Source of the DNA: a virus
Taxonomy: Duplodnaviria; Heunggongvirae; Uroviricota; Caudoviricetes
IMG/VR virus record: IMGVR_UViG_2718217859_000011
Span: 23,757 to 87,756 of that record
Length of the DNA stretch: 64,000 nucleotides
Strand: one strand, 5' to 3'
The notes under the pieces are model-generated. The model was given only the letters and a program-made list of their open reading frames with translations, had not been told where the DNA came from and ran no database searches. A program made the position numbers and the translations under genes. Shown piece by piece: positions 1-24,125 of this stretch (position 1 is its first letter; each line of letters starts with the position of its first letter).

Positions 1-19
1 TCTTCTGCATGTGCCATAA

Positions 20-48
20 CCTGCCGTAACAACCCGGCAGGTTTTTTT
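20..48 (+). terminator. Putative rho-independent terminator (GC hairpin cctgccg/cggcagg followed by T7)
   Basis: Inverted repeat at 20-41 followed by ttttttt at 42-48. Confidence 0.45.
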
Positions 49-255
49 ATTGAATAAATTTCCGGTTTCTTCCACCATCGCACCGGCCAGGCGACTATGA
101 GGGGACAACGCCGCGCTCCGTTAACGCAGTAAACCCCGGTGTGTATCGTTTTTGATTATCCCCGCACACTCGCGCAGAGGAGTCTCCCTGTCGGGCTGCG
201 GTCTCTGTTAATGCGGAAATACGGCGACAATACCGCGCATGGATAATAAGGTCGC

Positions 256-480
256 TCAACACACTGGCTGTAATGCAGCCGATACCATGCGGCATTTAGC
301 GGCATTCATCGTACACTCAACGGTTAGCTCTTCATTCGTGGCATTCACCTGAAAGATCCGGGAGTGTAATTGCGTACATTTACCACTGAACGAACCTTCA
401 ACAAGAACACGACCACGCTGCAAAATACGGAACAGAATTGTTCCCTGAAAAGGCTTTACGGTTACCAGTAATTTCTTCAT
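256..480 (-). CDS. Hypothetical small protein (74 aa) downstream of the lysis genes
   Basis: ORF with GGAG RBS 5 nt upstream of ATG at 480; no family recognised. Confidence 0.4.
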   Translation of the reverse strand: MKKLLVTVKPFQGTILFRILQRGRVLVEGSFSGKCTQLHSRIFQVNATNEELTVECTMNAAKCRMVSAALQPVC

Positions 481-503
481 GCATTCTCCGGATAACAAAA
501 ATA

Positions 504-971
504 CTAGTTAATACACTGAGTGCGGATATATTCCTGCGCCCCTTCCAGCTGCTTCTGCATCATCATCAACCGCTCTCTGAGAGTGAAATAATCCCGTTCA
601 ACTGTGTCTGCCAGTCGGGGGCCGGTTGCATTATCCACGCCGGAGGTGCCGGTGGCTTCACGCACGGTACCGGAGCAGGTGGCGTTGATCCGCAGGCGCT
701 TACGACCAGCGGCAACATCAGCACGCAGAGTTTCATTTTCAGCTCTCGCATCGGCTAATTCCCTCGAGTATCTGGCATCAAGTGCAGCGACATCACGCTG
801 GCGTATCTGCATATCAGTAATTGTCGCGTTCGCCAGCTCCAGCTCTCTGACTTTTTTATCGCGCTGCGCTTTGTAGGTGATGGCGTTATCGCGGTAATGA
901 TTCAGCCCCAGACCAAGCGCACCACAGGCTACCAGCAGGACAATAATCACCACACACAGAACACGGTTCAT
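504..971 (-). CDS. Rz: Rz-like i-spanin (lysis)
   Basis: 155 aa, N-terminal TM segment, strong resemblance to lambda Rz ([31 protein letters not shown] motifs); embedded Rz1 frame. Confidence 0.85.
566..751 (-). CDS. Rz1: Rz1-like o-spanin lipoprotein embedded in the +1 frame of Rz
   Basis: 61 aa, lipobox LVVSAC, proline-rich ([15 protein letters not shown]) like lambda Rz1; fully nested in Rz. Confidence 0.8.
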
Positions 972-1111
972 ATCCCCCTCACCCCAGCATCCCCGACGAA
1001 GACAACATCATCCAGCCTAAGAGCAACCAGCATTAGTGAAAATGAAATGCCGACGATTACACAGAGGATCTTCGCCAGCGTTATGAGCTTGTCTGACATG
1101 CTTAATCCTCT

Positions 1112-1294
1112 TCACGATTTCAACGCAATGACCAGTTTTGCCAGCCCATACAGCATCGGAGACACAGCAATACCGACCGCCACCCACTTAATAGCAAAAG
1201 CCAGCGCTCTGCTGATGTCATCAGTTACAGGCGCTTTCAGTTCAAGGCCGTTTTTCATAGTCAACCTCAACAGAATTCGTTTATACTTTTCCAT
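1112..1294 (-). CDS. Small membrane protein (60 aa) between endolysin and Rz
   Basis: ORF starting MEKYKRILL with GGGAG RBS; C-terminal hydrophobic segment. Confidence 0.4.
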   Translation of the reverse strand: MEKYKRILLRLTMKNGLELKAPVTDDISRALAFAIKWVAVGIAVSPMLYGLAKLVIALKS

Positions 1295-1326
1295 GTTCTC
1301 CCTTGCCTTATCCAAGGTCAGAAACA

Positions 1327-1362
1327 CAAAACCCCGCTTGCTGCCAACAAACGGGGTTTTAC
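1327..1362. terminator. Hairpin aaaccccg...cggggtttt (possible bidirectional or partial terminator)
   Basis: Inverted repeat ccccg(n)cgggg flanked by A/T runs on both strands. Confidence 0.3.
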
Positions 1363-1449
1363 TTTTATTCACTTAGGTTTTGCCAGTTCGCAGGATTTCG
1401 TGTTATCCGTCCGCGTTGGTCAACGTCATTTTTCAGCAAAATATTCTGC

Positions 1450-1983
1450 TTATCTGTCGATTCCCCAGCACGCCAGCGCACTTTCCTGATCTCGCCGGGA
1501 TACCTGACCGTAGCAATTATTTGAGCGGATACGGCAGTCTCTGCCACCGTCCTTAATCCACCAGCGAATCGCTTCACACGCTCCCCTGCGATCGCCTGCA
1601 TTAATTCGTTTATAAAACGTCGACGGGAAACACTTACCGGGGCCAATGTTATACGGACAGAATGACGCGATCCCCGCTTTCTGGGGTTCAGTCAGTGGCA
1701 CTTTGATGTTTTTCGCCACCCATGCCAGCGCCTTGTCACGTTCAATGGCGTTAACCCGGTCGCATTTTTCCTTTGACAGCTTCATGCCAGGAATAACAGG
1801 CTTACCATCCACCCGGGTGGCTCCACGGCAGATGGTCCAGATCCCCGCACCATCACGGTATGCCGTGGTGTGGTTACCTTCCTTTTCATCCAGAAACTGG
1901 TCGAGGATTTCAGGCGCAGGCGCACCTGCGGCAATCAGCGCCAGAACGGCAGCCGACAGACCGTATTTGATTTTGGTGTTCAT
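1450..1983 (-). CDS. SAR endolysin (phage lysozyme, GH24-like)
   Basis: 177 aa; N-terminal signal-arrest-release-like hydrophobic stretch (GLSAAVLALIAAGAPA) followed by a lysozyme catalytic region (EGNHTTAYRDGAGIWTICRG). Confidence 0.8.
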   Translation of the reverse strand: MNTKIKYGLSAAVLALIAAGAPAPEILDQFLDEKEGNHTTAYRDGAGIWTICRGATRVDGKPVIPGMKLSKEKCDRVNAIERDKALAWVAKNIKVPLTEPQKAGIASFCPYNIGPGKCFPSTFYKRINAGDRRGACEAIRWWIKDGGRDCRIRSNNCYGQVSRRDQESALACWGIDR

Positions 1984-2111
1984 GGATATTTATCAGGATT
2001 TATCGGTTCCGAATCCCTGGATATGTTAAGTCTTCAGCCTGCCAGTGGTGGGCACTGGTGTTTTACCTGATGGCTGAAATATATCTGACAATTCCCGTCG
2101 AGGATTTAGCA

Positions 2112-2426
2112 ATGTATAACGATGAACATAAATATACCGCCTGCATGCAGGCCATGAATGAACAATTTAAATCAGCATTCCTTAAACTCATTCAGCAAAA
2201 CCACGAAGCAGTAAAATCCATTCAGGCTGAGCCGTATGGACACCTCACACCACCAACTCTCGACATTATGTCCAGAATATTAACACCAGCCATGCTTCTA
2301 CGTCTGAAAGACAATATAAATGACTGGTTAAACGAAGAATTAAACTACCTTGAATGTGAGTGGGATCATCATTACGCCAAATCACAAAAAGAACGCATCT
2401 TCCGTCGATTATCCGGCAACAGATAA
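2112..2426 (+). CDS. Hypothetical protein (104 aa), oriented against the late operon
   Basis: ATG at 2112 with GAGGA RBS; convergent with the 2436-3077 gene; no family recognised. Confidence 0.5.
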   Translation: MYNDEHKYTACMQAMNEQFKSAFLKLIQQNHEAVKSIQAEPYGHLTPPTLDIMSRILTPAMLLRLKDNINDWLNEELNYLECEWDHHYAKSQKERIFRRLSGNR

Positions 2427-2435
2427 CGAGCCAGC

Positions 2436-3077
2436 TTATATACGTCCTTTAAGATAAGTCAGTCCTGGATGAAACCAGTAAGCCGGCACTTTTTTAAAGG
2501 GCGGATTATCAAAATCACGAAGAAGAGCCTCCCGCACAACTGCATCCTTGTCCGCACCACTGGCCAGCGCTTCAATCTCAGCAGCTACCTGCAGATATCC
2601 CATGCAACGACCAATGCGCTTCATTAGTCCCTGCTTTTTATTGTTCTTCAGGTAATCAATGGCAAATTCAATGAGCGCCTCACTGTGCTGGTGCGATGCT
2701 GGTGTTACTTTTCCATCTTCACGGATCGTGATATTCCAGTCATCGCTTGTCACAATAAAAGATGGCCGATTATCCCCCCATTCCTGGTCTTTATCCGGTG
2801 CAGACGCAATAAAATAACGTTTATTGCCTTCCTCTCCGGCACTTTTAACTGTAATGGAGTACTTTTCTGACAATGCGGTCGGTAAAAACTTTTCCTGCAA
2901 AATCTTCGCAAAGGTCCTGCGAGCAATTTTGATGCAATCATCGTAAAACGCTGCTTCCTGCTCATCGCGGCGTTTTTTTTCATCTTCAGAAACCATCAGC
3001 ACCGACAGTTTTTTATTCAGTTCAGTGATTTCATTTTCCAGGCAACTTATGCGCTGATTCATTTCTTCATGGTTCAT
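2436..3077 (-). CDS. Hypothetical protein (213 aa, N-terminal coiled coil), cargo gene inserted between pinholin and endolysin
   Basis: ATG 3 nt after the pinholin stop with GGGGAGAG RBS inside the end of the pinholin gene; AT-rich relative to flanks. Confidence 0.55.
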   Translation of the reverse strand: MNHEEMNQRISCLENEITELNKKLSVLMVSEDEKKRRDEQEAAFYDDCIKIARRTFAKILQEKFLPTALSEKYSITVKSAGEEGNKRYFIASAPDKDQEWGDNRPSFIVTSDDWNITIREDGKVTPASHQHSEALIEFAIDYLKNNKKQGLMKRIGRCMGYLQVAAEIEALASGADKDAVVREALLRDFDNPPFKKVPAYWFHPGLTYLKGRI

Positions 3078-3080
3078 CGT

Positions 3081-3296
3081 CTACTCTCCCCGCGCCGCCT
3101 TACGCCGGTCCTCTCTGATTTTGAAATACAGGTTAGTCAGGTACGTCAGCAGGCCAAACAGCAGACTCCCCAGCACACCTATCGCCACCCACTGGGACGG
3201 AGAGACTTTGTCCAGCAGCTGCAGTAACCAGTATCCCGTCCCCACCGCTGACGTGGTGTATGACACACCTGTTGTGATTTTTTCCATCTGGTACAT
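3081..3296 (-). CDS. Pinholin (phage 21 S21-like holin/antiholin with dual start MYQM)
   Basis: 71 aa; C-terminus [27 protein letters not shown] matches the S21 pinholin pattern; two TM segments; dual-start motif Met1/Met4. Confidence 0.8.
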
Positions 3297-3597
3297 ACCC
3301 CGTCTCCCGTTATCCGGAAGCTGACAACAATAAAAAAGCCACCCGTTAATTACTGATGGCTCTGATGCATAAACGTCATCATTCCCGACCGTTATGATTG
3401 ACAATGGTTATCATTTTTATATAAAAATACTCCCGATATGTGTTACATATCATTTCTCCACGGGGAATATCCCCACGCCAGCGTCAGACTCGTTTTCCCG
3501 TTCTCTTCTGTGCTGGCGTTTTTTTATCATGATGTCGGTACATTTATCTCCAGCACCAGGCTTTCAATCTCAACACCATACGCGGAATTTTTGGGCG

Positions 3598-3627
3598 TAA
3601 AAAATCCCCTCCGGTGAGGGGATTTGC
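3598..3627 (-). terminator. Strong hairpin (aatcccctc cggt gaggggatt) upstream of the lysis cassette
   Basis: 9-10 bp GC-rich stem with flanking A/T runs; lies between the moron block and the pinholin gene. Confidence 0.4.
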
Positions 3628-3856
3628 TTATGTAAACATTTACACTGCTTACCTGCATGGTGCCGGGTGCCTCCCGGTGAATTCAGTATCAGCACCTGAA
3701 TCCGCAATTATCCCATATACCTACTTGCTGATTGCCCCTCCGCACAGGGGGATTCACCATGCGAAATTTTTTTAACAAATGCTCAGTCTGACAGGCAACT
3801 GTCAACTGACTGAATTGTGAGACAATTAAAATTTTCTGGGCGTAACTGATACCCGG

Positions 3857-4021
3857 TTAACTACCTGGCATGTCCTTTTTCACCAAAGGAAAAAGCACCA
3901 CCACAATACCGACCACCAGCACTCCATCCGCCAGCACCGACATGATCCTGCTGGTGAAATCCACCATCACCACCAGAAACAGCAGGAGTGCCACAGCGGC
4001 CAGACGCAGTTTTACCGTCAC
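3857..4021 (-). CDS. Small hydrophobic peptide (54 aa, GTG start overlapping the TerB-like stop)
   Basis: Reverse-strand frame VTVKLRLAAVALLLFLVVMVDF...VVVLFPLVKKDMPGS; GTGA start/stop overlap with the upstream gene; below the 60-aa ORF-track cutoff. Confidence 0.35.
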   Translation of the reverse strand: MTVKLRLAAVALLLFLVVMVDFTSRIMSVLADGVLVVGIVVVLFPLVKKDMPGS

Positions 4022-4449
4022 AGGTGGTTCTCCAGTCGCAGGCCAAGAACACCAGCAATCTCTTCCAGAACCTTACGCTCTTCCGGCTCAATTTCACCAT
4101 CTGCTTCAGCAATGGCCACCGCCACATCCAGCACATCTTCCGCTTCACGCGTATCGTGTTTCACATCTTCAATTTCACGCAACGCTGCACGACGACCAAT
4201 TTTAAAATTGGTGTCAAGCTGACCTGTGATCGTGGCACTGATGGCATTAATTTCTGACGTAAATGCGGACAATGCTGGCTGGTTACGTAATACCTGTTCG
4301 ATCTTCGCTTTCTCTGAAGTCTCACATTCACCATCTGCATAGGCCACCAGGTAGGCAGCATTAATAACCGCCTGTGCCAGATCGCGTTTCTCAAACTTTT
4401 TAATTTCAGTTGCTGCTCTGCGGGTTTTCTTTTTGAAAATACCAAACAT
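4018..4449 (-). CDS. TerB-like (tellurite-resistance TerB family) protein
   Basis: 143 aa with paired ADGExxxxE-type motifs (LVAYADGECETSEKAKIEQV, IAEADGEIEPEERKVLEEI); AAAGGAAA RBS. Confidence 0.55.
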   Translation of the reverse strand: MFGIFKKKTRRAATEIKKFEKRDLAQAVINAAYLVAYADGECETSEKAKIEQVLRNQPALSAFTSEINAISATITGQLDTNFKIGRRAALREIEDVKHDTREAEDVLDVAVAIAEADGEIEPEERKVLEEIAGVLGLRLENHL

Positions 4450-4622
4450 CGTGACTTTTCCTTTTAGTGGGTGAGCCTGCGCCCGGGGGTGACCAGCCCA
4501 CAGAGAAAGTCACACTGACCATCCAGTAAGCTCCCCCCTGAAAAGCTCTGTGGTTTTTGATATGCGCCGGGCGTGGCGCGGATACAAAAAAGGCCCGCAA
4601 AAGCGAGCCAGGAAAATAAGTA

Positions 4623-4699
4623 TGGCGCGTTGTACTGGATTCGAACCAGTGACCGATTGCTTAGAAGGCAATTGCTCTGTCCGACTGAGCTAACAACGC
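4623..4699 (-). tRNA. tRNA-Arg (anticodon UCU)
   Basis: Reverse complement GCGTTGTTAGCTCAGTCGGACAGAGCAATTGCCTTCTAAGCAATCGG...GGTTCGAATCC..ACAACGCGCCA folds as a cloverleaf; anticodon loop CTTCTAA. Confidence 0.8.
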
Positions 4700-4712
4700 A
4701 TGATGCAGATAA

Positions 4713-4793
4713 TGGACCGCCATCGAGGACTCGAACCCCGCACCAACAACCCTGTTATCGTGTCGTCTGCTCTTCCTGATGAGCTAATGGCGG
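4713..4793 (-). tRNA. tRNA-like sequence with atypical anticodon arm (possible degenerate tRNA)
   Basis: Acceptor stem CCGCCAT/ATGGCGG, D-arm and T-arm (GGTTCGAGTCC) are recognisable but no clean 5-bp stem with 7-nt anticodon loop could be folded by eye. Confidence 0.35.
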
Positions 4794-4800
4794 TATGTTA

Positions 4801-4876
4801 TGGTGGCCCTTGCTGGATTTGAACCAGCGACCTGGCGATTATGAGTCGCTCGCTCTCACCACTGAGCTAAAGGGCC
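4801..4876 (-). tRNA. tRNA with anticodon CAU (Ile2/Met type)
   Basis: Reverse complement GGCCCTTTAGCTCAGTGGTGAGAGCGAGCGACTCATAATCGCCAGGTCGCTGGTTCAAATCCAGCAAGGGCCACCA; anticodon loop CTCATAA. Confidence 0.75.
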
Positions 4877-4916
4877 GGGCGCAGGATAATAACGGTACGT
4901 AACTAATTCTGCAATA

Positions 4917-5975
4917 TCATCCGTTCTGACTGACTAAATCCTGAACTTCCCTCACCGTCTGATCAAAACGCCCGGTCTCCAGCTCAACGCCAATTGCACG
5001 ACGTCCCAGCGCCATCGCTGCTTTGACCGTCGAACCCGACCCCATGAAAAAATCTGCAACCAGAGCTCCCGGACGACTGCTGGTGGTAATTATCTGACGC
5101 AACATCTCCGCCGGTTTTTCACAGGGATGTTTGCCGAGGTAATACTGTACAGGCTTATACATCCAGACATCCGTATACGGAACAGCAGCCGATACAGAAA
5201 AATAACGCCGCAAAGATTTGTACTCCTCCAGCGGGCTGGCATATTGCCGGTTAAGTTCACTGTATGTGCTGACCAGCTGGTGGTGTGGCTTTTCCAGTTC
5301 CCCGCGTTGATGTTTTTCTGCTGCAACACGCGCAAACAACGCCTGCAGTTTTCTGTAATCATCCTCGTTCGGTAACTGCCACTGGCGGGCACCAAACCAG
5401 TGCGACACCATGTTTTTCTTTCCGGTGGCTTCCGCTATCTGTTTTGACGTTATTCCCAGTGATTCACGCGCATCACGAAAGTAAGAAATCAGCGGGGCCA
5501 TGACGTGCTGTTTTAGCTCGCGCCCCTTTGCCGCATAGCCGTCATTTTTGGGCTGGTATGGCCCCTGATAATGTTCTGCAAACAGAATGCGTTCTGTCGC
5601 CGGGAAATACGCCCGCAGGCTTTCCTTGCTGCACCCGTTCCAGCGCCCGGACGGCTTCGCCCAGATAATGTGATTCAGCACATTAAAGCGTTCACGCATC
5701 ATGATTTCGATATCAGATGCCAGGCGATGACCACAGAACAGGTAAAGACTTCCGGCGGGCTTTAATACCCGCCAGAACTGCGCCAGACACTGGTCCAGCC
5801 ATTTCAGGTAATCATCATCGCCCTTCCACTGGTTATCCCAGCCCTCGGGCTTCACTTTAAAGTATGGCGGGTCTGTGACTATCAGGTCGACAGAGTTTTC
5901 CGGTAAGGCCTGGATAAACTCCAGGCAATCAGCGTTGATTAACTCACAACTGGATATTTTTACAGTATCAACCAT
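4917..5975 (-). CDS. DNA methyltransferase (N6-adenine/N4-cytosine type; DPPY motif before the C-terminal SAM-binding FMGSGST)
   Basis: 352 aa; motif IV VTDPPY near the N-terminus and FxGxG near the C-terminus (beta-class permutation). Confidence 0.8.
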   Translation of the reverse strand: MVDTVKISSCELINADCLEFIQALPENSVDLIVTDPPYFKVKPEGWDNQWKGDDDYLKWLDQCLAQFWRVLKPAGSLYLFCGHRLASDIEIMMRERFNVLNHIIWAKPSGRWNGCSKESLRAYFPATERILFAEHYQGPYQPKNDGYAAKGRELKQHVMAPLISYFRDARESLGITSKQIAEATGKKNMVSHWFGARQWQLPNEDDYRKLQALFARVAAEKHQRGELEKPHHQLVSTYSELNRQYASPLEEYKSLRRYFSVSAAVPYTDVWMYKPVQYYLGKHPCEKPAEMLRQIITTSSRPGALVADFFMGSGSTVKAAMALGRRAIGVELETGRFDQTVREVQDLVSQNG

Positions 5976-6125
5976 AGATCAATAAGCACTTCTCTGATAG
6001 GCTCATACCGCTTTTGCGCAAAGCAGATGGGCCTGAGGTTTGCTTGTGACCCCAACGCATGAGCAGATGGCTGGCAGGTGCCGCTAACACCCACCAGCCG
6101 CCCATTACCACAAATTAAAAAGCCT

Positions 6126-6323
6126 TCACTGCGGAAGGCGTCTGTAACAACCGAACTGATAATCTGCCAGACCCGCCATAACAAGCTGGGTCAGTATTAA
6201 CTGACAGCGTTCGCGTGAAAGGTAAGTATTCTGCGCAATTTCCCCGACGGTCGCCGGTTCGGTGACACTTAATTCATTAAACACCACTCTGGCGGTTTCG
6301 GTCATATCCTGCTGTTTTAGCAT
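6126..6323 (-). CDS. Small putative DNA-binding protein (65 aa)
   Basis: ORF from MLKQQDMTETARV; HTH-like segment EIAQNTYLSRERCQLILTQL. Confidence 0.35.
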   Translation of the reverse strand: MLKQQDMTETARVVFNELSVTEPATVGEIAQNTYLSRERCQLILTQLVMAGLADYQFGCYRRLPQ

Positions 6324-6497
6324 GTCTTTTTCCCTTTTCTGGTTAACGTGACATACCAATACCTCTTGTCGAAAAAGCCAGCAAGCTGAAAGACCGGTAT
6401 TAATAACCACCAGCGCGTTTAATATACCGCACCACTTTCGGGGCATAAAAAAATGCTCAATGACGGGCAGTAAAAATTCTTTGTTACTCAGGTGATT

Positions 6498-7217
6498 TTA
6501 ACGCACCCTGACAATGTTAATTTCAAAATCATCAATATGTCCGCTATTAAGTATAACGAATTTCGTACTCCCACTTCTGTACGATTTTGATAACACAAGA
6601 CGATCATCATAGCGTGCAAGAACGTAATACCAGACATTATCATAGTGGATCGACTGATATTCCCTCTTAAACTGGGGTTTGTACCAACCGGCAATAAGAG
6701 AGAATGTCCAGAAATAAATCATGAATCCAGCCATCATGAACTCAATTCGGTGATGGCGAATAAAAGATACTTCCGAAAAGCATTTGACTGAAATAAGTTT
6801 TCTTCCTGACCTGACAAAAAGCGTAATTATAAAGACAGCAATAACACAAAAAATAAGCACATCTGGCTCAACGTACTGATGAATGACCGAAAATTCCAGA
6901 ACAGGTGGAATAAAAAGCAGCAATATTGCCAGAAAAAGTCTGATAAAACTCAAATTCTGTATATTGTTTTTTTGTTTTATGCCTAAAAAGAAAACAATAC
7001 CAACACCCCATCCAGTAAGGAATATAACGATAACGGTCACAGCATAAAACAAACTTCGGGCCACATCATCAACGCCAGCTCCGACAACCCACCATGGAAA
7101 GCCATAGTAAAAGGAAGTACCCCATCCATAGAAATAAGCGCTTCCCCATCCAAGACAGCCCATATAAGCAATAAAAAGTGAAGAGTTCCTCAGTAGAGTA
7201 CTGTCATCCATACCCAT
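6498..7217 (-). CDS. AT-rich multi-pass membrane protein (239 aa), late-operon moron
   Basis: 5-6 predicted TM segments rich in W/Y/F/G; markedly AT-rich coding sequence; lies directly downstream of the candidate late promoter. Confidence 0.55.
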   Translation of the reverse strand: MGMDDSTLLRNSSLFIAYMGCLGWGSAYFYGWGTSFYYGFPWWVVGAGVDDVARSLFYAVTVIVIFLTGWGVGIVFFLGIKQKNNIQNLSFIRLFLAILLLFIPPVLEFSVIHQYVEPDVLIFCVIAVFIITLFVRSGRKLISVKCFSEVSFIRHHRIEFMMAGFMIYFWTFSLIAGWYKPQFKREYQSIHYDNVWYYVLARYDDRLVLSKSYRSGSTKFVILNSGHIDDFEINIVRVR

Positions 7218-7351
7218 CTCTCTAACAATTTAAAAACATTGACTCACCTTACATAACAAAGGAGATTCCATGCAGTCAAGAGACTTCAGAGCAGGAGAAA
7301 CTCATTGCACAATCGCCATCACGTTTAACGTTATGCACCGCTTTTCGGGCA

Positions 7352-7373
7352 CAAAAAACCCGCTCTATGGCGG
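7352..7373 (-). terminator. Candidate early terminator of the late promoter transcript (tR'-like)
   Basis: Hairpin cccgc-tctatg-gcggg followed by T6 on the minus strand, about 50 nt downstream of the candidate promoter. Confidence 0.4.
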
Positions 7374-7422
7374 GCTGTAAAAATTCTTCTAACGTCAGGC
7401 ATAAAGCACCCATAATTAGGGC

Positions 7423-7450
7423 AAACTTACCACAGATTCGGGAAAAATCA
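7423..7450 (-). promoter_or_regulatory. Candidate late promoter (pR'-like) immediately downstream of the Q-like gene
   Basis: Minus-strand TTGATT, 16-bp spacer, TAAGTT; position relative to the Q-like gene and downstream hairpin. Confidence 0.3.
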
Positions 7451-7456
7451 ATAACA

Positions 7457-8278
7457 CTAGCACATTACCCTCTTTAACTGCCGCTCCGCCCATGCCTCTT
7501 CAATGTCAAACCGAACCACCAACGTATCGTAAAAGCGCTTCACTGATTTTTTCCATGTATCAAGTGTAATAGCACTCGTCACTTTGCATATGGCATTAAA
7601 TGCCTCTGTTGACGGCAATCTTTCATAGCCACGACCGCCACAACGCTGGCAGTCCCTGATAACCGGCATCCCCCGTTTTTCCGACTCTTCACGATGAACG
7701 GCAATACCGCGCCCACGGCAGTCTTTACAGGCAGTGGAAATCTCCCCCTTCCCTTTACATTCCGGGCAGGAAACTTTTACCACCTCCCTGACTTTTTTCC
7801 ATTCTTCCCAGTAAGACGGATACACACCTTTCGTACACTTTGCCCATACTGGCGGCTTGCCATCCGGATACTGAACCTTGTTTGTAAAAACTTCGCTTTC
7901 AATAAATCTTTCCCCATGGCAACAAGGGCACTGCTTTTTACTCGCTGCGCTGCGGGCGTAATCCTCAAAAGCGTACGAAGCCATAATGCGCATCACTACC
8001 GGTTTTATTTCTGCCGGGAGTTTTCTTAACGCCGAGACGCGATCGCACTGACTTAATGCATAATCTGCCAGTAATTCTGTTGCCCGCGCCCTGTCATTCA
8101 TACTAATGCCCATTTTCCCCAGGAACGCAGAAAATCCCATCTCAGCCCGGTTCTGTGTCATACCCTGCGCAGCCATCACATCAGTGATACTCAGCGCATC
8201 TTTTGACGTCGAAGCGGATGCATCAGTCAGGCCTGGGGATTTTGGGGAATAGTATTTCGGTAAATCTTCCAGTTTCAT
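7457..8278 (-). CDS. Late-gene antiterminator Q-like protein (Cys-rich zinc-binding)
   Basis: 273 aa with multiple CxxC pairs (CPCC, CPEC, CKDC, CQRC); sits between rusA and the late promoter/lysis region, as in lambdoid phages. Confidence 0.55.
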   Translation of the reverse strand: MKLEDLPKYYSPKSPGLTDASASTSKDALSITDVMAAQGMTQNRAEMGFSAFLGKMGISMNDRARATELLADYALSQCDRVSALRKLPAEIKPVVMRIMASYAFEDYARSAASKKQCPCCHGERFIESEVFTNKVQYPDGKPPVWAKCTKGVYPSYWEEWKKVREVVKVSCPECKGKGEISTACKDCRGRGIAVHREESEKRGMPVIRDCQRCGGRGYERLPSTEAFNAICKVTSAITLDTWKKSVKRFYDTLVVRFDIEEAWAERQLKRVMC

Positions 8279-8649
8279 TTTTGGACCTGACCGTCATGCA
8301 TTATTTCGTAAATCTTCACACCCAGCCGACCACCAGGAACAGGCAGTCCGCGCACAATATTAATTTCATCAAACTGCTCGTCGTCGATAAGCAGTCCCGC
8401 ATGCGTCAGCGCATCCAGCGGTGCCTTCAGGATATTGTCCAGGTCACGACGGCGTTTATCCGGTGGCTCTGCAATAATTTTTATTGCCAGCCTTCCCGAC
8501 AGGTTTAATTTCAACCGCTGCTGGCGAACAATGAGCGCCAAATCACGGCGATAACGCTCACCGGCTTTTGATACAAAATATGTGCTGCCATGACGTCGCC
8601 AGTAGGTGTTCACCGTCAGCGGGTAAGGCAAAACAAACTCTATACACAT
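8275..8649 (-). CDS. rusA: RusA Holliday-junction resolvase
   Basis: 124 aa; LPYPLTVNTYWRR and RRRDLDNILKAPLDAL motifs typical of RusA. Confidence 0.8.
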   Translation of the reverse strand: MCIEFVLPYPLTVNTYWRRHGSTYFVSKAGERYRRDLALIVRQQRLKLNLSGRLAIKIIAEPPDKRRRDLDNILKAPLDALTHAGLLIDDEQFDEINIVRGLPVPGGRLGVKIYEIMHDGQVQK

Positions 8650-8661
8650 CAGTACCCCCTT

Positions 8662-9651
8662 TTACCCAAGCACGCCGGTTGCAAAGGCGTGATCAAGAAA
8701 ACGAAAAATTAAATCAACCTGAGAACCATGGTTTTCTTCGAACGCCAGCAGATCCGCATGAAGTTCGTTGTGATGCTCCCGGCACAGCGGTAGTGTAAAA
8801 ATATCGTGGGCCTTTGTTCCCATTCCGCCCTGACCATGACCAATCAGGTGATGGGGATCGTCGGCTGGCTTACCACAACACGCACACGGCTGTGTCTTTA
8901 CCCAACGCGTGTATTTCTCATTCACCCAGCGGCGACGTTTGGGGCGTAACATAAAAGACACCGGCGACTCCGGATCCACTTTCAGCGCCAGCACCTTTTT
9001 CGCTTTATCCTGGATGATGCTGGTGGCAGGAACCGAAGGCCCAAGGTCACACTCCCGGGTGACAGACGGCACAACAGGCGTCGGTAATCTCAGTGCCTTA
9101 CGGGCTGCACTTTCCGGTAAGGCATCCGCCAGGTCATTACGAGCCAGCCACCAGCACAGTTCCGGCATTGTCACAACGTGACTGTCATCAAAACCGAGAT
9201 CCCGACGCACAACAGACAACACCCAGCGGGCACAGTTATCCGTTGCCATTGATTCCAGCCGTTCCGTGAACTGATCGCGCAGCTGGTTATCGCAGTGCCA
9301 GCACAGACGGATTGCGCCCGGAGCGTGTCGCATTGTTGTCATGTTCTCGCTGTGCCAGTCGGAATGAAGCCACTGGCAGCCTTTTTCACGAAGTAACCAG
9401 CGTTCAAGACATTCCACGCCACCAGCACGACGGATCACTGCCTCATTGCGGAACACGGCCCGAACGGCAGGATCATCCGCCAGCGGTTGTGATGCCGCCG
9501 GAACGGCACCACTGGCGAAAGATGAATAACGTTCCGGCTCAGGCTCCAGCAGGACACGCCCCTGCATAAACAGGGGCATCAACTCTGAACCTGGCCTGAA
9601 CAATACGATCCCCATACGTGGGGCAATTTCAGGGGTCAGTAGTGCTCTCAA
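8662..9651 (-). CDS. DUF968-type nin-region protein with C-terminal HNH-like motif
   Basis: 329 aa; C-terminal CACCGK...HHLIGHGQGG...LCREHHNELH resembles an HNH/zinc-finger nuclease motif. Confidence 0.55.
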   Translation of the reverse strand: MRALLTPEIAPRMGIVLFRPGSELMPLFMQGRVLLEPEPERYSSFASGAVPAASQPLADDPAVRAVFRNEAVIRRAGGVECLERWLLREKGCQWLHSDWHSENMTTMRHAPGAIRLCWHCDNQLRDQFTERLESMATDNCARWVLSVVRRDLGFDDSHVVTMPELCWWLARNDLADALPESAARKALRLPTPVVPSVTRECDLGPSVPATSIIQDKAKKVLALKVDPESPVSFMLRPKRRRWVNEKYTRWVKTQPCACCGKPADDPHHLIGHGQGGMGTKAHDIFTLPLCREHHNELHADLLAFEENHGSQVDLIFRFLDHAFATGVLG

Positions 9652-9660
9652 CGTAGAACC

Positions 9661-10176
9661 TCACAGCACAATCTGTTTCAGTTTCTGTACCGCTTTCCCC
9701 ATATCCGCCATAGCATCAACAAACTCATCAAATTTACGACTTGCCATTCCATACGCCTGGAGGATTTCCAGTTTCAGAGGATCCAGTTGCTTTTTAATTT
9801 CCGCACGATCATTAAATTTCTTCTCTGCTTCTTCCGCAGCCCTGATCAGCTCCTCAGCATGCCTGCGTAATTCATCCGGAGTAACGGTCTTTTTAATCAC
9901 AACGGGTTCCTCTGTTTTTACTGGTATTTCACTATTTACTGCCTGATGTCCAAATTTAGGATGATGTAACGTTGTAGTTCTTCCATCATTCGCAACGACC
10001 AGAAGTCCACTGTCGCGGATAATGCCAATGAGTATCTCCTTATCCCTTTTATTCAGCAGACTGTACGCCTGCACTTTCTGTGATATCTGGGTCAGTGTTG
10101 CGCCTTCCGGCATTCGTTCAACAAAACGTTTAACCCTGGATAAAACTGGCTGCAGATGGGGTGGTGTAATTCTCAT
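9661..10176 (-). CDS. Hypothetical protein (171 aa, coiled-coil C-terminus)
   Basis: ORF in the nin region; no family recognised. Confidence 0.45.
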   Translation of the reverse strand: MRITPPHLQPVLSRVKRFVERMPEGATLTQISQKVQAYSLLNKRDKEILIGIIRDSGLLVVANDGRTTTLHHPKFGHQAVNSEIPVKTEEPVVIKKTVTPDELRRHAEELIRAAEEAEKKFNDRAEIKKQLDPLKLEILQAYGMASRKFDEFVDAMADMGKAVQKLKQIVL

Positions 10177-23747: not shown

Positions 23748-24125
23748 ATGTCGGAAAAATTCCGTTTCAGTCAACGTAGCGAGAAAAATCTGGCTGGTGT
23801 AAAACCACAACTGGTGGCGGTTGTACGCCGTGCGCTGGCGTTGTCGGACGTCGATTTTGGTATTACCGAAGGTTTACGCACGAAAGAACGTCAGAAACAA
23901 CTTGTCGCTGAAGGCAAGAGCCAGACCATGAACAGCCGTCACCTTACTGGCGATGCTGTTGATGTCGTGGCTTACGTTGGTGGCACCATTTCATGGGACT
24001 GGCCGTTATACGAAAAAATCGCCCGAGCCTTTAAACAGGCTGCCGCAGAGCTGGGTGTCGCCATCGAATGGGGCGGAGACTGGAAAACGCTGAAAGACGG
24101 GCCTCATTTCCAGTTAAAACGCTGA
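23748..24125 (+). CDS. Endolysin, peptidase M15-like (L-alanyl-D-glutamate peptidase type)
   Basis: 126 aa from MSEKFRFSQRSEKNL; motifs SRHLTGDAVDV and DGPHFQ; GGAGG RBS. Confidence 0.65.
   Translation: MSEKFRFSQRSEKNLAGVKPQLVAVVRRALALSDVDFGITEGLRTKERQKQLVAEGKSQTMNSRHLTGDAVDVVAYVGGTISWDWPLYEKIARAFKQAAAELGVAIEWGGDWKTLKDGPHFQLKR

Follow-up and report, generated by a model that had tools for sequence, protein, structure and literature searches.

The window analysed here is a stretch of 64,000 nucleotides from a Caudoviricetes virus (IMG/VR record IMGVR_UViG_2718217859_000011, positions 23,757 to 87,756). Positions 1-9,700 of the window are the late region of a lambdoid prophage in which every gene lies on the minus strand. 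Within this region, between a tRNA island and the small RNA (sRNA) STnc100, two overlapping genes are found at positions 3857-4449. We report that these genes are nearly certainly a two-gene accessory cassette homologous to tciA-tciB of phage P1, and that tciA is preceded by a structured leader. The following features make up the cassette.

4018-4449, minus strand: tciA, coding for a cytoplasmic TerB-domain protein of 143 amino acids (aa) with a pI of 5.1 (open reading frame and profile matches)
3857-4021, minus strand: tciB, coding for a hydrophobic, predicted membrane protein of 54 aa with a pI of 9.7 (open reading frame and profile matches)
4018-4021, minus strand (tcac on the plus strand): GTGA overlap of the tciB GTG start with the tciA TGA stop
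4447-4555, minus strand: structured 5′ leader of tciA, about 110 nt, a long hairpin (alignments, covariance model, covariation)

The tciA-tciB cassette

TciA belongs to the TerB family, as the original prediction for this locus had stated. The protein matches the Pfam family TerB (PF05099) over residues 26-138 with 60.9 bits (E=1.8e-16, cut-off 24.4) and phrog_632 with E=1.7e-69, and phmmer aligns residues 14-137 to the TerB structure of Klebsiella (PDB 2jxu, E=9e-8). The AlphaFold2 model, calculated from 31 homologues, is all-alpha with a mean pLDDT of 89.6. Its best Foldseek matches are the TerB-like structures 2h5n (probability 1.0, TM-score 0.55-0.6) and 2ou3 (probability 0.91, TM-score 0.5), the TM-scores being only moderate. 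Weak matches to DjlA (NCBIfam) and DUF533 (Pfam) were also obtained. The alignments show a conserved N-terminus, MFGxFKKK, which is first hydrophobic and then basic, and two ADG-x5-E motifs in which D39, G40 and E46 as well as D117, G118 and E124 are invariant or nearly so (alignments A1 and A7). The duplicated acidic A-D-G-x5-E motif of TerB has reportedly been predicted to be a metal site by Anantharaman et al. in 2012. As a side observation, a TciA homologue lacking TciB in Candidatus Pantoea communis (locus L099, 8843-12085) is flanked by three more weakly TerB-like open reading frames (24-34 bits with the TciA profile).

TciB matches the Pfam family DUF3927 (PF13064) with 59.5 bits (E=3.2e-16, cut-off 25) and phrog_1470, which is named TciB-like, with E=1.4e-24. 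Both termini are basic, and the motifs VDFTS(R/K), (A/S)DG and, near the C-terminus, (W/F)P..K are conserved. Hydropathy analysis gives two hydrophobic stretches with the polar VDFTS(R/K) segment between them, whereas AlphaFold2 predicts one continuous helix from residue 2 to residue 49 with a pLDDT of 90. A two-segment hairpin is neither supported nor ruled out by the modelled helix. The original prediction was right about the 54 aa of the peptide, and its description as a single transmembrane segment is not established. A tblastn search of the 54-aa TciB against phage records returned 0 matches, probably because the query is short and was subject to the low-complexity filter. Homologues were therefore detected with profile hidden Markov models (HMMs) built from directly read open reading frames, and they are present in other phages of Enterobacterales and of Pseudomonas. 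Searching 1.84 billion representative proteins for TciB retrieved 51 clusters, all of 30-89 aa with the exception of one chimera, so that members of the TciB family almost always stand alone. A 176-aa protein (P0131) considered as a natural TerB-TciB fusion proved to be a chimera with a histidine-phosphatase fragment and is not used as evidence.

In comparison with phage JLK-2012, whose DNA is 85% identical, dN/dS is 0.04 for tciA and 0.23 for tciB. Thus, both genes are real and under purifying selection. We scanned 44 loci, that is, the window, 10 phage records and 33 genomes of different species, with profile HMMs made from 11 TciA and 8 TciB sequences. In 34 of these loci, strictly virulent phages among them, the distance from the TciA stop to the start of a TciB-like reading frame is between -7 and +4 nt. 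Junctions of this kind are found in P1, JLK-2012, Fostie, FSL SP-076, ChrisDB, phiK7B1 and Nafs113. The GTGA overlap in the window had been noted before and is present, and a GGAG sequence is found 8 nt upstream of the GTG start. The pairing of tciA with tciB is thus conserved across very different phages and looks obligate, and together with the family matches and the dN/dS value this establishes the small overlapping frame as a genuine conserved gene.

The pair is found in several genomic settings. In Escherichia, Pantoea and related prophages it lies in a lambdoid context between Q and the holin gene. In P1 it is located downstream of the C1-repressed ban promoters. Copies in Serratia, Dryocola, Pectobacterium and Buttiauxella lie near repressor genes or in integrase-primase islands. 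Among the latter four genera, two loci (L101, L102) carry a tciAB island with an integrase, Xre-type regulators and a primase-like gene of 770-830 aa, which resembles P4-like satellites, and two others (L105, L122) have a tciAB island with a repressor-like gene and a similar primase-like gene. The strictly virulent carriers are the N4-like phage FSL SP-076, Pseudomonas phage phiK7B1, Pantoea phage Nafs113 and the Erwinia jumbo phage ChrisDB, where the pair is found among nucleotide-metabolism or tRNA genes. In PMBT3 and Ebordelon, TciA occurs with no recognisable TciB, and in PMBT3 it adjoins ThyX and DNA polymerase. Of 5,426 complete E. coli genomes, 802 (about 15%) contain the pair with at least 80% of the query covered, at up to 8 locations per genome. 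Many of these locations are in Shiga-toxin-producing strains, which often have more than one copy.

The tciA-tciB-tciC operon of P1 (record AF234172) is said to have been annotated by Lobocka et al. in 2004. TciA of the window is 41-52% identical (tblastn) to proteins of two P1 records, AF234172.1 and OP279344.1, with 41% identity and E=1e-23 for the TerB-type TciA of the former. As in the window, a 54-aa TciB, 43% identical (alignment A2), follows directly after TciA, the stop and start codons overlap and tRNA genes lie beside the operon. Unlike P1, however, the window has no TciC-like third gene. No hydrophobic reading frame is found downstream of tciB, where STnc100 is located instead. The two copies also differ in their surroundings, since the window copy lies in a late operon that presumably depends on Q and the P1 copy behind the ban promoters, and the conserved leader described below is missing from P1.

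A locus with 100% identity is found in several bovine E. coli genomes. The PGAP names of the two products there are 'tellurite resistance TerB family protein' and 'DUF3927 family protein', whereas some phage records use TciA and TciB. The pair is therefore already known by annotation (Pfam, PHROGs, RefSeq) and is not a discovery. The original prediction of a TerB module had family and position right and missed the identity with the named and widely annotated tciA/tciB of P1. What is new here is the leader RNA, the exact boundaries of the slot which the cassette occupies, the argument for a function in the lytic cycle and the association with tRNA genes.

A structured leader upstream of tciA

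About 160 nt upstream of tciA are better conserved than tciA itself. In Fostie, TciA has only 43% protein identity, yet the leader is 80% identical at the DNA level. Read in the order of the coding strand, the region comprises a terminator-like hairpin (4609-4592), a GC hairpin (4579-4564) and the long hairpin (4555-4447). At the base of the long hairpin, CC-UU pairs with the Shine-Dalgarno sequence AAGG (4460-4463).

A pattern scan of IMG/VR yielded 184 leaders, and in 168 of them tciA follows within 900 nt downstream. The others are truncated remnants or lie upstream of other genes. A covariance model (R1) built from 30 distinct leaders scores 114.7 bits on the leader of the window and, with 60.8 bits, also detects the tciA leader of ChrisDB, a virulent phage of Erwinia. 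Weaker yet significant copies (25-62 bits) were found upstream of Rha/Ant-like regulators, of proteins of 246-268 aa encoded behind the lysis cassette and of a 132-aa reading frame. In these intact copies, but not in the truncated remnants, the 3′ end of the model falls on the ATG start codon.

The structure is supported by covariation. When 17 distinct sequences are aligned by fitting to the model, 93.6% of the cells are paired as compared with 35-52% when the partner is slid, compensatory double changes occur in 15 of the 23 leader pairs, and all five measures are above those of all 500 shuffles. A structure-fitted alignment is biased towards that structure. An alignment made with MAFFT gives the same picture, although weaker, with 94% of the cells paired and 23 double-change cells, a number reached by no shuffle.

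We suggest from the sequences that the 5′ flank, CCACAGAG, may form a pseudoknot with the apical loop, CUCUGUGG. The putative pair becomes CCGUAGAG/CUCUACGG in ChrisDB and GAAAG/CUUUC in divergent copies. When counted (alignment A9), 86% of the cells are paired versus 36-65% with a slid partner. Only 2 pairs show double changes, however, and the shuffles are not clearly exceeded. Additional compensations were seen by eye only, in columns left unaligned by the model.

A 5.5-kb scan with Rfam 15 gave no match to 4447-4555 at E<=1, and a 196-nt scan at E<=10 gave only weak matches, which fall on the upstream terminator. The leader is neither PasA nor PasC, as the Pas preprint puts both beside the holin and links PasD to STnc100. 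A duplex prediction between STnc100 and the leader allowed huge loops, was uninformative and was dropped. Furthermore we observed that the length of the G-tract in the 5′ arm (about 4530-4535, minus strand) ranges from 4 to about 12 G in copies which hardly differ elsewhere (L062, L151 and others). These length differences could be slipped-strand variation or an assembly error.

Leaders which hide the Shine-Dalgarno sequence are known from the fourU and ROSE RNA thermometers, and RNase III-processed leaders from phage transcripts such as lambda N and the T7 early sites. The tciA leader resembles these in that a long hairpin lies directly 5′ of the start codon and a U-rich sequence pairs with the Shine-Dalgarno sequence, and in its location between genes of a polycistronic phage transcript. 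It differs in having no sequence or Rfam relationship to them and possibly in the pseudoknot between the loop and the 5′ flank. We infer that the leader is a candidate cis-regulatory RNA, either a repressor hairpin that would open in response to a signal or a site at which RNase III would cut and so free the ribosome-binding site. Going one step further, we tentatively propose, as a possibility that in our estimate falls short of an even chance, that the leader belongs to an undescribed family of cis-regulatory RNAs. Such a family would gate several unrelated phage accessory genes (tciA, the Rha/Ant-like regulators and the 246-268-aa proteins) by a hairpin that sequesters the Shine-Dalgarno sequence and is possibly pseudoknotted. 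Either a signal or RNase III, by cutting late polycistronic transcripts, would open this hairpin. As a second, subordinate possibility, tciAB may be functionally tied to the phage tRNA genes. Selective translation of cargo genes embedded in a late operon could be explained by the leader.

The cargo slot between the tRNA island and STnc100

The cassette is bordered by the following features.

4623-4876, minus strand: tRNA island (ARAGORN, Rfam, PGAP)
4801-4876, minus strand: intact tRNA-Ile2(CAT) (ARAGORN)
4713-4793, minus strand: degenerate argN-like tRNA (alignment to argN; 'tRNA-OTHER' in PGAP)
4623-4699, minus strand: intact tRNA-Arg(TCT) (ARAGORN)
4592-4609, minus strand: terminator-like hairpin followed by T6, between tRNA-Arg and the tciA leader (terminator scan)
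4564-4579, minus strand: small conserved GC hairpin, GCGCCACGCCCGGCGC, upstream boundary of the cargo slot (alignment)
3593-3791, minus strand: sRNA STnc100, downstream boundary of the slot (Rfam RF02076, 148.7 bits)

A comparison with the Stx2a phage WGPS8 delimits the slot. Two blocks of homology are found, one at 4575-5027, comprising the tRNAs, the terminator and the end of the methylase gene, and the other at 3734-3828, comprising the beginning of STnc100 with the 37 nt that precede it. The cassette at 3829-4574 occupies exactly the position that stx2A and stx2B have in WGPS8 between the tRNA island and STnc100. Since homology flanks it on both sides, the proposal that tciAB lies where Stx phages carry stxAB proved correct. 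The upstream homology ends inside the GC hairpin, at 4575. The boundaries of the slot are now located with a precision of a few bases, namely the GC hairpin downstream of the tRNA-island terminator and STnc100, and this helps to read the mosaic structure of Stx and Stx-like prophages. Like the stxAB cassette, the pair comes after ileZ-argN-argO and a terminator and precedes STnc100 and the lysis genes. The proteins, however, are unrelated and Stx is an exported toxin, so that stxAB is a positional analogue only. The tciAB pair is one of the commonest cargoes of the stx slot.

The island had been described as containing three tRNAs. Two of them are intact, whereas the middle one is a homologue of argN with a 4-nt insertion and a rewritten, disrupted anticodon arm, and neither ARAGORN nor Rfam calls a tRNA at 4713-4793. 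The structure of the 4592-4609 hairpin is kept in other loci with differing stem sequences.

At the other end of the slot the strong hairpin at 3598-3627 (10-bp stem, ACCG loop, U run on the minus strand) exists as the original prediction had it. It is the intrinsic terminator of STnc100 (RF02076), for which folding gives a stem at 3602-3625. STnc100 follows stx2B in WGPS8 and tciB in JLK-2012. STnc100 is found directly downstream of the cargo slot for tciAB and stx2AB alike (window, 3593-3791; L125, 3431-3642; L002, 4965-5137). The sRNA may be co-transcribed with the cargo, and tciAB transcripts not extended by Q would end at the STnc100 terminator.

Proposed expression within the late operon

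The remaining elements of the late region that bear on expression are listed here.

7457-8278, minus strand: antiterminator Q (Pfam PF03589, Antiterm, 170.7 bits)
7357-7376, minus strand: terminator-like hairpin, tR'-like, 80 nt downstream of Q (terminator scan)
6498-7217, minus strand: 239-aa hydrophobic protein, phrog_1521, between Q and the methylase
6126-6446, minus strand: 106-aa protein, phrog_331, between Q and the methylase
6122-6139, minus strand: terminator-like hairpin, between Q and the methylase (terminator scan)
4917-5975, minus strand: DNA methyltransferase, the gene upstream of the tRNA island
3081-3296, minus strand: class II holin S, the next late-operon gene after the cassette (Pfam PF04971, 110.7 bits; PGAP)

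In the order of transcription the region reads RusA, Q, two uncharacterised proteins, the DNA methyltransferase, the tRNA island, tciA-tciB, the sRNA, holin S, a 213-aa protein, lysozyme and Rz. Every gene in the stretch from Q to the holin has the same orientation, and the coding strand carries terminator-like hairpins at 7357-7376, 6122-6139, 4592-4609 and 3598-3627. A scan of the minus strand for consensus promoters, which sees only near-consensus sigma-70 sites, found none between these terminators. Reading the leader region by eye for -35 and -10 boxes gave no conserved candidate. Of the features of a classical 'moron' the cassette thus has a terminator downstream, that of STnc100, and no consensus promoter within the reach of the scan. 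We suggest that in this prophage the cassette is transcribed only when Q-modified RNA polymerase reads through the terminators of the late operon, the Q protein encoded at 7457-8278 being the presumed source of this readthrough. Translation of tciA would additionally be gated by the leader hairpin which buries the Shine-Dalgarno site.

Proposed role of TciA and TciB

We suggest that the amounts in which TciA and TciB are made are coupled and that the two proteins work jointly on the cytoplasmic side of the inner membrane, where TciB would anchor TciA or be its partner in the membrane. The two proteins might be a split version of membrane-tethered TerB-like domains, as in DjlA, and of the TerB-TerC pair. 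Membrane-tethered TerB-like domains are also found in DUF533 proteins such as YebE. We draw this analogy because an interaction of TerB with the membrane protein TerC has been described, because of DjlA, and because membrane attachment of TerB was reportedly studied by Alekhina in 2011, a study cited in PMC11709261. In DjlA, which consists of a transmembrane helix, a TerB-like domain and a J domain, the TerB-like domain comes directly behind the helix at the cytoplasmic face of the inner membrane (PMC11709261). For TciA such tethering is inferred. In contrast to DjlA, a J domain is missing and the presumed anchor, TciB, has a gene of its own, translationally coupled to tciA. By analogy a membrane complex of TciA and TciB is plausible, and the N-terminus of TciA, MFGxFKKK, hydrophobic and then basic, would agree with a link to the membrane.

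As the pair is kept in strictly virulent phages, we argue for a role in the lytic cycle rather than for abortive infection by lysogens only. Its presence in temperate and strictly virulent phages suggests that the function belongs to lytic growth. The place of the P1 copy behind the C1-repressed ban promoters and the occurrence of TciA alone in PMBT3, beside ThyX and DNA polymerase, also speak for such a role. In the weakest step of the proposal, the module would protect or condition the inner membrane of the infected cell during lytic growth, and candidate threats are pore-forming colicins, the entry of a superinfecting phage and ion or metal stress. It would not be a system of abortive infection that protects the lysogen. 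For the whole of this proposal, that is, a translationally coupled TerB module at the inner membrane which is expressed by Q-dependent readthrough and serves the lytic cycle, we see a little better than an even chance.

Several observations weigh against this proposal. About a fifth of the TciA homologues in the 44 loci have no recognisable TciB. In some species the cassette lies near immunity regions or in integrase-primase islands, so that expression in the lysogen is possible there, and the promoter scan has the limited reach given above. The sole protein with both a TerB and a DUF3927 domain (P0173, 197 aa, PF05099 and PF13064) looks like the product of a double frameshift in a draft genome and was left unused. 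None of terC, terD and terE is near tciA, whose neighbours are tRNAs, tciB, STnc100 and the holin gene. In P1, tciA, tciB and tciC were non-essential in a genome-wide CRISPRi screen (PMC10695390), and the paper on the N4-like phage Pollock states the role as unknown (PMC4319500). A literature search found no functional experiment on TciA or TciB, and the papers that name the genes repeat the homology argument. The search likewise found no published tellurite, colicin or phage-inhibition phenotype of the phage pair.

The comparison with the terZABCDEF operon bears on a different explanation, which goes back to the stress, exclusion or abortive-infection module of the original prediction. Here the pair would be expressed by the prophage as an exclusion or abortive-infection module that blocks or aborts other phages, or resists colicins, in order to protect the lysogen. 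TciA shares with the TerB of Klebsiella (2jxu) the Pfam family, the all-alpha fold and the two conserved ADG-x5-E motifs, and ter operons reportedly inhibit phages and make cells resistant to pore-forming colicins (PMC4319500, PMC7371120). The repressor genes or integrase-primase islands beside the cassette in L101, L102, L105, L112, L119 and L122 would also fit. The window pair is, however, not part of a ter operon, and since terC, terD and terE are missing from its surroundings, the phenotypes of ter operons cannot simply be transferred to it. The partner of TciA is a 54-aa DUF3927 protein as opposed to the multi-pass TerC, and TerB alone is not known to give a ter phenotype. With PADLOC-DB 2.0 there was no model match, only a partial one to PDC-S48 (14.8 bits, E=0.0028) and none for TciB. 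Moreover, the cassette lies between terminators with no promoter detected and with its Shine-Dalgarno sequence sequestered, and the strictly virulent carriers have no lysogen to protect. A function in protecting the lysogen is therefore unlikely in our view, while the pair may still serve in exclusion or membrane protection in the course of lytic growth. The position just upstream of the holin, endolysin and spanin genes in lambdoid prophages (the window, Fostie, L094, L098 and L110), together with the small size, hydrophobicity and charged ends of TciB, might instead point to an accessory of lysis timing in which a holin- or antiholin-like TciB, regulated by the cytoplasmic TciA, tunes the firing of the S holin. 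Yet a long distance separates the pair from the lysis genes in P1 and in the N4-like, Pseudomonas and jumbo phages. TciB has no match to a holin family in Pfam, only to DUF3927, holin S is a separate gene, and the pair of P1 is non-essential. We regard a function in lysis timing as quite improbable.

The tRNA genes beside the cassette raise the question of a function linked to them, for example one in which the pair works with the neighbouring phage tRNAs against anticodon nucleases or colicins that cleave tRNA. In 11 of the 44 loci (including L002, L003, L005, L093, L107, L114, L116 and L117) tRNA genes are found within 1 kb of tciAB. The identities of these tRNAs differ, being Ile2 and Arg in the window, Asn, Thr and Gly in JLK-2012, Asn and Thr plus Ile2 in P1, an array in ChrisDB and Ser, Gln/Ser/Met, Arg or Ile elsewhere. 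Among 31 loci from GTDB species representatives with flanks of up to 10 kb, 6 tRNA clusters lie within 1 kb as compared with 0.92 expected from the density at 1-10 kb (Poisson P=4e-4), although the loci are not fully independent of each other. Against this stand the three quarters of the loci which have no tRNA nearby and the lack of a known link between TerB domains and RNA. In addition, tRNAs and accessory genes may just share insertion hot spots. A tRNA-linked function appears to us the most improbable of these explanations, and we prefer the coupled module at the inner membrane.

Further elements downstream of the cassette

Two minor observations concern the region around STnc100. In the identical RefSeq locus, the PGAP annotation has a pseudogene ('hypothetical protein', partial and frameshifted) on the plus strand, antisense to STnc100 (3638-3781). 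This pseudogene is probably an artefact of annotation. Between STnc100 and the holin gene a strongly structured element (3430-3532, plus strand) ends in a stem with a U7 terminator (z=-5.4). Its match to the EHEC sRNA Esr41 is weak and below the threshold (39 bits versus 102), and among the phage records its sole match is phage Evi.

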